Source: Cyanobacteria bacterium P01_D01_bin.156
GTDB lineage: Bacteria > Cyanobacteriota > Cyanobacteriia > Phormidesmidales > Phormidesmidaceae
Assembly (NCBI GenBank): GCA_039024555.1
Contig: JBCCQQ010000001.1
Location: 128,001 to 192,000 of the forward strand
Direction: 5' to 3'
Length of the DNA stretch: 64,000 nt
Positions within the stretch are counted from its first letter, which is position 1, and every line of letters begins with the position of its first letter. The notes under the pieces were generated by a model. That model did no database searches and was not told the DNA's origin. It worked only from the letters and a program-made list of their open reading frames with translations. Shown here piece after piece: positions 33,161 through 36,159 of this stretch. The position numbers and the translations under genes are program-made.

Positions 33161-35128
33161 CTAGGATGGCTGCAAATCTCCGGGCGATTCCCCCGTTCCC
33201 TCTTGTTTTTCTGATTTAAGTTCAGAGGACTTAGACTCTGACTCCCCAGTATTTTCTGGAGGATCCACAGGAGGCAAGGTATCGCTAACTAGACGACCGG
33301 TTCGCTTCCCACCTGATAATCGCTTCAATAACTGCGGAGTGGGGTCATGTATTAAGTAAGTAACCCGATCACCTGGTTGCCAAATACCTGGCCCCAAAAC
33401 CACATCCAGCTTTCCATTACGCTGTAAGGTAATGGGCAACAGCTCACCTCCAGCAATCAGCTTATTGAGCTGATCTCGCTGTTTATCAAAGTCATCAGCC
33501 TGGAGCTGAGTAGTACTGAGCTCAGCAGCATTATCCTTTAAATAAGTATTCCAAGTTTTAATCGCCAGAGGCGTAGATGTCACCTTGCCACCCTTACCAT
33601 TTTGCTTAGCCTCCGTTTCCTTATCACTCCGGGGCAAAACCGCCAGCACCCGAGGTGGCTGAAACTCCTCCGCAGCCCTCTCCGCCACTACCGAATTAAC
33701 TTCGCCGTTCGTTGTGAGCGCTAAAAACGTGCCGATGGAACTTAACCCAGCTTCATCTAAAAGTTCTGCATCTAAAGCACTGCTCAAGTAAACCTTCAGA
33801 CCATCTTGCCTAGCCAGTTCGCAGGCTTCCTCATCTGTATCAAACATGACTACAGATTCTCCCTGCTGGGCAAACAAACGCCCCACCAAACGCCCTACCG
33901 GATTACATCCTACAATCACCACCCCGGTGGCATCCGCTTGGGTAATCCCCAAAAACTTAGCAATGCTGCGCGCCGTCAGGCCCTGGATAAAGACCGTCAT
34001 AATGATGGTCAAAAACACCAGCGCTTTAATGGAGTCACCACCGTTAATGCCACGCTCAGTCAACAAAATTGCAAACAATGAAGCAACTGAGGCTGACACA
34101 ATTCCCCTAGGCGCAATCCAGCTTAGAAAAAGTTTTTGCCGCCAATTCAGATCACTATTCAGTGTGCAGGCATAAATATTTAAAGGGCGGACTAGCAGCA
34201 TCAGAGCCAGCACCGTAAATACGGAGCCTATCCCCAAGGCAAAGACACTGTCTATGGATAGGTCTGCTGCCAACAAAATAAACAGCACAGACACTGAAAA
34301 TACCGTCAGCTGTCCCTTAAAGCGCAGCAGCAAGCGCTCATCAGGTACGGAGAACGCTCTCAATACCAACCCTGCTGTTACTGCCGCCATTAGCCCTGAT
34401 TCACTACGAACCTCTTGGGCTAATCCAAACAAGCCCCACACACTGGCCAAAACCACCAGATTTCGGAGTTCCTCAGATAAAAAGTCAGCCTGTTTGAGAA
34501 ACTGCCCCAGCAGGGCACCGCCAATGCCACCAATGACTGCACCAATACTCAAACGTTGGGCCAGGCCACCCACAATAAATCCCACATCGGTATCACCGTT
34601 GAGCAAAATATCTAGCACGACAACCGCCAGAATTGCCCCAACCGGGTCAATTAAAACCCCTTCACCTTCCAAGATGGTGGCTACCTTTTTTTCCACCTGT
34701 ACCTGACGGAGCAGAGGCGTAATTACCGTTGGCCCAGTAACCACAACCAGAGAGCCATATAGAAACGCTAACGGCCAGGGAAATTCTCCAAACCAGTGAG
34801 CGGCCATACCGCCACCGAGCAGCGTAATAAACGTGCCAATGGTAATGAGATTTCGTAAACTACCAGAAACCTGGCCCAACTCCTTTAACTCTAGGTTTAG
34901 TCCACCTTCAAATAAAATAAGTGCAACGCAGAGAGATACGATTACCTCCAGTCCTGTGCCAAGCAACTTGGGCTCAATGACTCCCAGAAAGTCAGGCCCC
35001 AGAAATACGCCTAAAATGAGCAAGAAAATAATGCTTGGCAACCGCAAGTATTCGGCAATTACCTGGGCTGTAATACCAGCTAAGACTGCCAAGACTATCT
35101 GCAGAGTGATATCAAACGGGGTTGCCAT
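33161..35128 (-). CDS. Cation:proton antiporter (CPA1, NhaP-like) with a TrkA-N domain
   Basis: LILFEGGL, VTGPTV, EGEGVLIDP and WIAPRGIV motifs, then VVIVGCNPVG. Confidence 0.92.
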   Translation of the reverse strand: MATPFDITLQIVLAVLAGITAQVIAEYLRLPSIIFLLILGVFLGPDFLGVIEPKLLGTGLEVIVSLCVALILFEGGLNLELKELGQVSGSLRNLITIGTFITLLGGGMAAHWFGEFPWPLAFLYGSLVVVTGPTVITPLLRQVQVEKKVATILEGEGVLIDPVGAILAVVVLDILLNGDTDVGFIVGGLAQRLSIGAVIGGIGGALLGQFLKQADFLSEELRNLVVLASVWGLFGLAQEVRSESGLMAAVTAGLVLRAFSVPDERLLLRFKGQLTVFSVSVLFILLAADLSIDSVFALGIGSVFTVLALMLLVRPLNIYACTLNSDLNWRQKLFLSWIAPRGIVSASVASLFAILLTERGINGGDSIKALVFLTIIMTVFIQGLTARSIAKFLGITQADATGVVIVGCNPVGRLVGRLFAQQGESVVMFDTDEEACELARQDGLKVYLSSALDAELLDEAGLSSIGTFLALTTNGEVNSVVAERAAEEFQPPRVLAVLPRSDKETEAKQNGKGGKVTSTPLAIKTWNTYLKDNAAELSTTQLQADDFDKQRDQLNKLIAGGELLPITLQRNGKLDVVLGPGIWQPGDRVTYLIHDPTPQLLKRLSGGKRTGRLVSDTLPPVDPPENTGESESKSSELKSEKQEGTGESPGDLQPS

Positions 35129-35412
35129 CGGTGGTGTTATGGCGACTGCTTCGCAGGCAGGACCTAGAAAAACAAGACTGGCTGGATGTTCTGAACAAGA
35201 ATGACAATGGAAATCAGGACCAGTCCTACAAAGGTATTAGCTAGATCCAAATCGTATCGCAGCTAATGAATTGAAATGAACTGAATGCCTTAACGCATCT
35301 AGCCTTAGACAGGCGAAATCATATCTATAGCAGCACGACCAAACTTCTAGCCTAACATCTTATGTTGGCCAGGAAACGCTGGCAACTCTGGCAAGTGAAC
35401 CCGAACAAACGC

Positions 35413-35523
35413 AAAAAAAAGGGTGGACTAACGCCACCCAAGTCACAGGAGTTATAAGGAGATACGACAATCCGACCGCCGGTACTCTACCAAGGCCGTA
35501 ATGTCATGGTGGGATTAACCCAC
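35413..35523 (-). ncRNA. Candidate ~111-nt structured small RNA (or attenuated leader)
   Basis: -10 TAATAT at 35535-35530; 5' hairpin GUGGG-uuaau-CCCAC starts 7 nt later; long central hairpin; CU-rich linker; GGGUGG/CCACCC terminator with U8. Confidence 0.7.
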
Positions 35524-35562
35524 GCCTTTATATTAGTGGGAGTTTTTTGAAAACGGTGTTTT

Positions 35563-35606
35563 TATAGAACTTCTATAGGATTTTTTTTTCTATAGATAGT
35601 ATTGAT
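35563..35606. promoter_or_regulatory. Repeated ATAG/CTAT half-sites, possible LysR-type regulator site
   Basis: tatagaacttctataggatttttttttctatagatagtattgat, about 40-83 nt upstream of the predicted RNA start. Confidence 0.4.
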
Positions 35607-35733
35607 GCAAAACAACGTTGCAGTGTGTATCAACCCTGAAAACCATCTTAATAATCGGACGCATTTCCTACAGAAGTCGCTACTTTGGATTTAAGAAAGA
35701 ATATTAGTAAGCTGCCCTTTATCTTCAAGTCTC

Positions 35734-36159
35734 GTGCTGCGTCATCGTAACCTACTAAAGCACCAATTTTTGCACTCTCAAAAGATCGTGCAAAAGATTG
35801 ATTTAGGTGAAGTTTACCCGTGTCCGGTATGCCGTCATCGAAGTAAGATTCAGAGCATTACACTGACCGAAGCATTTGGCTGCGATCGCTGCCAACAAAT
35901 TTATGTTATTCGTGATAGCGGACTAGGTTTGGAACAGCTTTCAAGTGTCCACCCGTATCGCCGTCTTTGGCGATGGACTGGTAGCCAGTGGAAACAGTAC
36001 AGTAAGATTCCAGCCTCTGGATGGCTAATTTTGCTAGCCGTCATTGCCATCTTGTTTGCAATCCTAGGGCTCTGGTTTCTGCTGCCTATTCCTTTTAGGA
36101 TTTTGGCAGTGGTAGCAGCCAGCCTAGCGGGTTGGTCAATTTTGACCTCACGCCACTAG
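35734..36159 (+). CDS. Hypothetical protein: CxxC...CxxC zinc ribbon plus C-terminal TMs
   Basis: YPCPVCR...EAFGCDRCQQ, WRWTGSQW; true start may be the later GTG (VQKIDL). Confidence 0.75.
   Translation: MLRHRNLLKHQFLHSQKIVQKIDLGEVYPCPVCRHRSKIQSITLTEAFGCDRCQQIYVIRDSGLGLEQLSSVHPYRRLWRWTGSQWKQYSKIPASGWLILLAVIAILFAILGLWFLLPIPFRILAVVAASLAGWSILTSRH

Follow-up and report, generated by a model that had tools for sequence, protein, structure and literature searches.

A candidate family of trans-acting small RNAs in one cyanobacterial family, with predicted pairing to the ribosome-binding sites of ccmK and rbcL

The window analyzed in this study, a stretch of 64,000 nucleotides from the genome of Cyanobacteria bacterium P01_D01_bin.156, contains a conserved element located between a divergent 141-aa ORF and a gene for a cation/H+ antiporter (Table 1). 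The first-pass annotation of the window had described a -10 box, two hairpins, a linker with CUCCU motifs, a terminator and the distance to the antiporter, all of which were found in place on the minus strand. The predicted RNA is 110 nt long in this genome, as compared to 166-171 nt in 18 copies from the same genus, with one of 238 nt, and 150-240 nt among the relatives overall. The 141-aa ORF encodes paired cysteines and a hydrophobic C-terminus.

Table 1. Features of the locus, with positions counted from the first nucleotide of the window.
Feature	Position	Strand	Remarks
Cation/H+ antiporter (Na_H_Exchanger + TrkA_N, CPA1-type)	33161..35128	minus	start 285 nt downstream of the terminator
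Promoter-like site TTGCCA-17-TAAGAT	35357..35385	minus	could drive the antiporter alone; weak, consensus match only (1 found vs 3.6 expected by chance)
Predicted RNA	35413-35523	minus	
Intrinsic terminator GGGUGG/CCACCC + U8	35439-35413	minus	stem 35439-35421, U8 35420-35413
Linker	35463-35440	minus	CUCCU at 35461-35457 and 35451-35447
24-nt seed with two CUCCU motifs	35443..35466	minus	invariant in 20/20 aligned genus rows
Hairpin 2	35507-35464	minus	the UGUCGU at its 3' base also forms the 5' portion of the region predicted to pair with targets
Hairpin 1 stump GTGGG/CCCAC	35523-35509	minus	about 57-60 nt deleted relative to relatives
-10 box TAATAT	35535-35530	minus	start predicted near 35523
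Promoter segment CCGTTTTCAAAAAACTCCC where a -35 box would be expected	35536..35556	minus	conserved in genus rows; similar in sister-genus copies
Second conserved block	35589-35660	minus	upstream of the RNA promoter
Divergent 141-aa ORF	35734..36159	plus	not assigned to a Pfam family; synteny with the RNA in genus and sister genus

The fold of the minus strand has a z-score of -2.35, with 2 of 200 shuffled sequences equally stable, as compared to a z-score of -0.95 for the plus strand, which is no better than its shuffles. Hairpin 1 had been taken for an intact structure, but is the remnant of the deletion, in place of which the relatives keep a long hairpin with two-sided changes in 11 of 16 pairs. 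Two-sided changes occur in 12 of 38 consensus pairs in the 18 genus copies, 11 of them in the long hairpin (1/500 shuffles matches), and the covariation score is 0.226 vs at most 0.106 in slid controls, figures that are favored by the derivation of the consensus structure from the same 18 sequences. The pairs of hairpin 2 are formed in 97.8-100% of the cells of this alignment, mostly with invariant bases or G-U changes, and the GUCG/GUUG at its base is kept in nearly all groups. Two copies (L043:2470-2707 and L038:2329-2550) carry insertions of about 70 nt in hairpin 2 that lengthen the stem and leave the seed intact, and the lengths of the stems therefore appear to be free while the seed is fixed.

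The AUCUCC of the seed is unpaired with a computed probability of about 0.98. The terminator stem is invariant in 18/18 genus copies, with a variable loop, and the corresponding stems in other genera have a different sequence, yet are still hairpins. Conservation stops after the U tract, and the sequence beyond the terminator is not conserved in the 20 aligned genus rows. No conserved reading frame was identified: the ATG in hairpin 2 occurs in three different frames among the 18 copies and is followed by a stop after six codons in this genome, which rules out a small protein product. At the level of sequence, the element combines a promoter and an intrinsic terminator of its own, as expected for a trans-acting, base-pairing sRNA.

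The TA-N3-T of the -10 box is kept in 20/20 aligned genus rows and only its middle bases vary (TAATAT, TAAGAT or TAACAT, with TACTAT in one row). Because a -35 box is absent, this promoter is missed by a consensus promoter scan. Repeated ATAG/CTAT half-sites had been noted upstream, of which CTATAG is present in 2 of 20 rows including the window, while the relatives have CTATTG at the first site; since the sites are not conserved, an operator of this type was ruled out for this copy. The second conserved block contains in the relatives a TCAATA-N5-TATTGA inverted repeat, with one base changed here, as well as GTTGATACA-N3/4-GTAAC, and may serve either the RNA or the divergent ORF.

Homologs of the RNA were identified in 19 of the 21 genomes from the same genus. 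Three covariance models were built successively, of which the second, used for the family-wide counts, matched 70 of 151 family genomes at E<=0.05 and 65 of 151 at E<1e-4, with 14 of 19 genera represented; the same seed was found, among other named records, in Adonisia, Leptothoe and Leptolyngbya-like genomes. Strong matches were confined to this family in two class-wide searches of 151 genomes each, with strict filters that lose weak matches. The weak matches outside the family were on inspection mostly terminators or antisense leaders. An intergenic, seed-like stretch in a genome of another family (L270:1400-1585 in G104; E 0.007) is preceded by a box-like motif and accompanied by a GC hairpin, without a U tract, and is a possible distant homolog. 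Four non-cyanobacterial sequences among 30 seed matches lacked a terminator and were dismissed as chance matches, and viral contigs gave 0 exact matches to a seed pattern.

The first-pass annotation could not assign the element to a named RNA. No Rfam 15 model matched the window at its gathering score, and the nine matches near the locus at E<=10 were of chance level (the best with E 0.14, far below the cut-offs). Nor was a description of the RNA found in the literature searched, which included queries with five seed strings and extended to neither figures nor most subscription papers; according to its available text, PMC12873609 lists 409 novel cyanobacterial structures predicted with CMfinder, and the RNA may be among these. 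It apparently represents a new, undescribed sRNA family that, as far as homology searches indicate, is restricted to a single cyanobacterial family.

Outside the genus, 37 of 45 copies share a promoter of the form TTG(C/T)CA-17-TGnT(G/C)(A/C)AAT. It is followed by two boxes with the pattern ATWG-N8-(A/C)(A/T)AT and a spacing of about 32 bp, of which the first covers the predicted start; the boxes were found in 34/37 and 37/37 of these promoters, as compared to a background of 0.25 per kb for a pattern that is relaxed and was drawn from the same promoters. In the available text of PMC13249358, the consensus for NdhR is given as ATAG-N8-CTAT, and sbtA, ndhF3 and nhaS1 are named as NdhR targets. 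The same 32-bp pair of boxes is found upstream of sbtA in the genome studied here, as one of seven genome-wide matches, and with one mismatch before ndhF3. Another 32-bp double box of the NdhR type is located at G000:C3:20904 on the minus strand, 47 nt before a 285-aa ORF that we take to resemble a universal stress protein and that is possibly a further NdhR target. Since most non-genus copies carry these boxes, induction at low CO2 is suggested for most of the family. This does not extend to the copy in the window, in the promoter of which no NdhR-type box was found; judged by its sequence, this copy has a different promoter. In addition, 16 of the 45 non-genus copies follow cupA-cupS.

The connection to ccmK arose unprompted from a weak covariance-model match that was antisense to a ccmK ribosome-binding site; antisense matches to the ccmK leader were obtained again in two genomes that lack the RNA (ccmK by position). 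Leaders were gathered for both ccmK genes of the operon in 32 genomes, for rbcL in 62, for ccmK4 and ndhD4 in 30 each, and for a transketolase-like gene located in 26. The first ccmK of the operon was named ccmK2 by its position, and ccmK4 by its RAGS pore motif. In 5/5 genomes, picked because the match had been seen in them, the 14-mer RAGGAGATTACGAC occurs exactly twice per genome, antisense in the RNA and before ccmK2, while the reversed control gave 0 matches; a seed pattern of a second group was found at both places in 4 of 5 genomes.

The ccmK2 leader mirrors the seed by lineage, with GAGAT-AA-CGA in one clade, GAGAT-TA-CGA in another and GAGAT-TG-C in G024, and the A or G before the Shine-Dalgarno sequence matches in both partners. 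About four joint changes in the seed and the ccmK2 leader were counted by eye on separate branches of an NdhD4 protein tree with 30 rows, one of which (G031) may be a paralog. Cognate pairs of seed and ccmK2 leader have a mean energy of -22.5 kcal/mol vs -20.2 kcal/mol for non-cognate pairs (0/20000 permutations, n=22), as compared to 623/20000 permutations for the control ccmK1, and in six genomes the cognate seed came no higher than 11th among the 22 seeds. For rbcL, the same test gave 4073/20000 with one choice of segment and 5/10000 with another. In full-length cofolds from 17 other genomes, ccmK2 paired better than ccmK1 in 14, in one of these by 0.1 kcal/mol, and ccmK1 better in 3. A single nucleotide is deleted from the seed of the genus, so that its pairing with ccmK2 contains a bulge and has a longest Watson-Crick run of 7.

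Pairing to the ccmK4 leader scores -20.6 kcal/mol in 24 genomes with the RNA vs -11.8 kcal/mol in the 6 scored without it, one of which (G025) was later found to carry a degenerate copy. An ACAGG block that fits the second CUCCUGU is present in 12/24 ccmK4 leaders from genomes with the RNA, the block being absent from the three genus copies, vs 0/6 from those without. The ccmK2 site persists in several genomes without the RNA (with vs without, p=0.06-0.15), and the control ccmK1 also pairs better in genomes with the RNA (p about 0.006); the p-values of these leader tests are overstated because related genomes are not independent and ccmK1 differs between the groups as well. The degenerate copy in G025 (L372:1330-1563 region) retains both NdhR-type boxes and the terminator, with the first CUCCU decayed. 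The ccmK leaders of G025 have drifted as well, a single case.

The candidate starts of this genome, 14264 in total, were ranked by pairing with the 20 nt at the 5' end of the pairing region, a segment that was picked after the ccmK2 match had been seen and before the other genes were considered. The transketolase-like gene, ccmK4, ndhD4 and ccmK2 occupy ranks 1-4, followed at ranks 24 and 26 by a beta carbonic anhydrase (ccaA-like) and sbtA. No flank-shuffled seed with the anti-Shine-Dalgarno core kept equaled the real ranking (0/115; 20 genes of a 21-gene CCM set were scored, with cupA left out). When the whole RNA and the folding cost were taken into account for 2783 starts with a Shine-Dalgarno sequence, rbcL ranked 2nd, a gene that we presume from its motif to be rpiA-like 6th, fbp 11th, sbtA 36th and ndhD4 59th, with ccmK2 at rank 137 and ccmK4 at rank 420. 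The low full-length rank of the ccmK genes is due to the need to open the base of hairpin 2, and the pairing with ccmK is weaker in this genome.

The second block of the seed (CCUGUGA) is predicted to pair with the upstream (U)CACAGG in the leader of rbcL and, outside this genus, in that of ccmK4; the rbcL site is kept in several genomes without the RNA, also in another family. The sites before ndhD4 and before the transketolase-like gene are specific to the genus, which rules out these two genes as family-wide targets. The transketolase-like gene itself (L264:4941-6839 in G000:C92) falls under the family cut-off, and its leader is a near-perfect match to the seed in the genus only (14/14 in G016). 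The RNA exposes a conserved, accessible seed with complementarity to unlinked mRNAs, as do trans-acting sRNAs, with the 5' extension of the pairing region being paired inside hairpin 2.

We compared the RNA to PsrR1/SyR1 (RF02701), which is likewise described as trans-acting, with two CUCC motifs before its terminator and one ccmK reported among its possible targets (PMC4390856). PsrR1 blocks ribosome binding on several mRNAs (PMC6596454) and is controlled by RpaB and induced by high light (PMC6525291), and RF02701 is described as a less conserved hairpin from 13 sequences (PMC12873609), as far as the available texts of these sources go. The RNA studied here could be a highly diverged PsrR1 ortholog, with a shift from photosystem to CCM targets and a changed promoter. 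The Rfam consensus contains UCGGUAUCUCC and a second UCUCCU before the terminator, much like the seed, and the two RNAs share a UCG(G)UAUCUCC block; also, no PsrR1 over the cut-off was found in 41 family genomes, so that the two RNAs were never seen together.

The two RNAs differ in the spacer between the motifs; PsrR1 is controlled by RpaB, whereas most copies of this RNA carry NdhR-type boxes; and PsrR1 targets photosystem I and the phycobilisome, whereas the predicted targets here are CCM and Calvin-cycle genes. The leaders of PsrR1 targets rank modestly or poorly with the 5' seed (cpcA 122, psbB 1171 and chlN 5699 of 14264; psaL and psaJ were not located), as does cpcA at full length (1718/2783). 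The RF02701 model, with a threshold of at least 42 bits, was absent among the nine matches at E<=10 and did not match this locus in a genome-wide search at E<=1, and our covariance models gave no convincing match outside the family. The negative result for RF02701 is a soft one because the model is weak, with 0/41 class genomes over its cut-off. A remote kinship is possible given this weakness, the lack of PsrR1 in the 41 family genomes and the shared block. Orthology seems unlikely on balance; it would be compatible with occlusion of ribosome-binding sites, and would lower the novelty of the RNA rather than change its mechanism.

Yfr1/Yfr10 (RF01116) also has a UCCU-containing single-stranded motif between stems, and Yfr10 pulled down carboxysome mRNAs in Prochlorococcus, as stated in the available text of PMC6778093. 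The motif of Yfr1 is ACUCCUCACAC as compared to ACUCCUGUGA here, and the RNA in the window is longer and restricted to one family. Identity with Yfr1 was ruled out by the lack of a Yfr1 match at the locus and by the presence of the true Yfr1 on another contig, L093 (G000:C18:35440-35507; 50.2 bits). RNA-level control tied to rbcL or inorganic carbon has been described for RblR, CsiR1, Ncr0700, Ncr1220 and SyR52 in Synechocystis. RblR is described as a cis-antisense RNA that acts positively on rbcL, whereas for the other four the available descriptions report no known targets; our covariance models gave nothing convincing outside the family studied here. For NsiR4, a trans sRNA of Nostoc, regulation of CO2 fixation has been reported (PMC8491059, available text), but this RNA is induced by nitrogen stress and had no Rfam match here.

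The seed could also be that of a generic anti-Shine-Dalgarno sRNA in trans with broad or different targets, in which case the CCM matches would stem from strong, conserved leaders or from a seed born as an inverted copy of the ccmK2 leader. Any anti-Shine-Dalgarno sequence pairs with many strong leaders; the leaders in question are conserved even in genomes without the RNA, many non-CCM genes are among the top 30 of the full-length ranking, and the seed, if read on the plus strand, resembles a ccmK2 leader that lacks its AUG. Yet the parallel, lineage-specific changes at unlinked loci, the genome-wide uniqueness of RAGGAGATTACGAC and the control with shuffled flanks argue for specific targets, as do, independently, the NdhR-type boxes and the cupA-cupS neighborhood. 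We consider a generic sRNA quite unlikely. The first-pass annotation had suggested a regulator-controlled sRNA that blocks ribosome-binding sites through a CU-rich seed; the trans-acting part of this suggestion is supported and can now be given specific predicted targets, and control by a regulator is supported for most non-genus copies through the double box, but not through the ATAG/CTAT sites.

Alternatively, the RNA had been proposed to control the antiporter gene in cis, either as an attenuator or as a leader that responds to cations. In 22 of 26 cyanobacterial loci from the genus and its sister genus, the RNA has the 141-aa ORF on one side and a CPA1-type antiporter on the other, and a Na+/H+ antiporter gene is placed in the NdhR regulon by the available text of PMC13249358, both of which would suit a cis-acting leader, an attenuator, a cation riboswitch or an actuaton with read-through. 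Yet only 4 of the 45 non-genus loci precede the same CPA1 antiporter and 17 a CPA2+Usp antiporter, while 24, of which 4 end near a contig edge, precede neither. By lineage, the RNA is thus upstream of two antiporter families, CPA1+TrkA_N as in the window and CPA2+Usp (L045:305-2362), with one or the other downstream in just 21 of 45 non-genus copies.

The leader reading is not supported, since a constant link to one gene family is absent. Also against it are the unconserved spacer, a separate promoter-like site after the terminator, terminator stems that vary from genus to genus and for which no shared alternative pairing was seen, and the single-stranded nature of the best-conserved part, which matches the leaders of other genes; as a target, the leader of the antiporter itself ranks 10516 of 14264. 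A role as leader is very improbable, and on present evidence the antiporter is a neighbor outside the mechanism of the RNA, into which read-through may occur as a side effect. That the element is an untranscribed conserved DNA element or an orphan terminator, as its being missed by the promoter scan might suggest, is extremely improbable. It is preceded by conserved promoters in two unrelated forms, its two-sided and G-U-type changes are of the sort expected if the minus strand folds, and the nearest co-oriented gene upstream lies 800 nt away from the terminator, beyond the divergent ORF.

We therefore favor a trans-acting sRNA that probably acts by covering the ribosome-binding sites on the ccmK2, ccmK4 and rbcL messages, as predicted from complementarity, with repression as the presumed outcome. 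The RNA would be transcribed as a free-standing, non-coding molecule from its own promoter to its own terminator, and its single-stranded AUCUCCU would nucleate on Shine-Dalgarno sequences. From there, pairing would grow in one of two directions. On the 5' side it would take in the base of hairpin 2, which fits the spacer that precedes the start codon in ccmK2 and ccmK4; on the 3' side it would take in the second CUCCUGU block, which fits the ACAGG located upstream in rbcL and ccmK4. With the ribosome-binding site covered, less CcmK2, CcmK4 and Rubisco large subunit would be translated, and in this genus the transketolase-like gene and ndhD4 are probably targets as well.

In most other genera, the boxes of the NdhR(CcmR) type over the start would turn the RNA on at low inorganic carbon, and the signal of a transcriptional repressor would be converted into translational damping of CO2-fixation genes. 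In the Fur-RyhB circuit, a repressor silences an sRNA that in turn silences mRNAs, which makes the repressor an indirect activator; here, the repressor would instead be NdhR and the signal inorganic carbon. The mechanism is apparently of a known kind, with a new RNA family and a new predicted circuit. In its most specific form, the proposal is that of a family-wide, NdhR-controlled sRNA, unrelated to PsrR1, that blocks ccmK4 as well as ccmK2, with which the ccm operon begins, leaves the adjacent ccmK1 free and damps rbcL, with a rewired promoter and extra targets in the genus; this we put forward tentatively, as somewhat short of an even chance.

The predicted repression of shell genes at low CO2 runs counter to the reported rise in carboxysome number under these conditions (PMC4390856, available text). 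A better fit would be either a brake on the synthesis of Rubisco or a selective effect by which CcmK2 and CcmK4 are damped more than CcmK1. According to the available text of the same review from 2015, carboxysome number changes with CO2 without matching changes in transcripts, and post-transcriptional control is expected (PMC4390856), while a review from 2026 still treats low-carbon ncRNAs as just potential layers of control (PMC13249358, available text). The RNA provides a concrete candidate with named targets, base-pair predictions and natural compensatory variants that can be tested in a standard reporter assay, and it could serve as a tool to tune carbon fixation. If the most specific form of the proposal is true, the composition of the shell and the ratio of shell to Rubisco would shift with the supply of CO2, and the CO2-concentrating mechanism in this family would include an RNA layer with co-evolved target sites.
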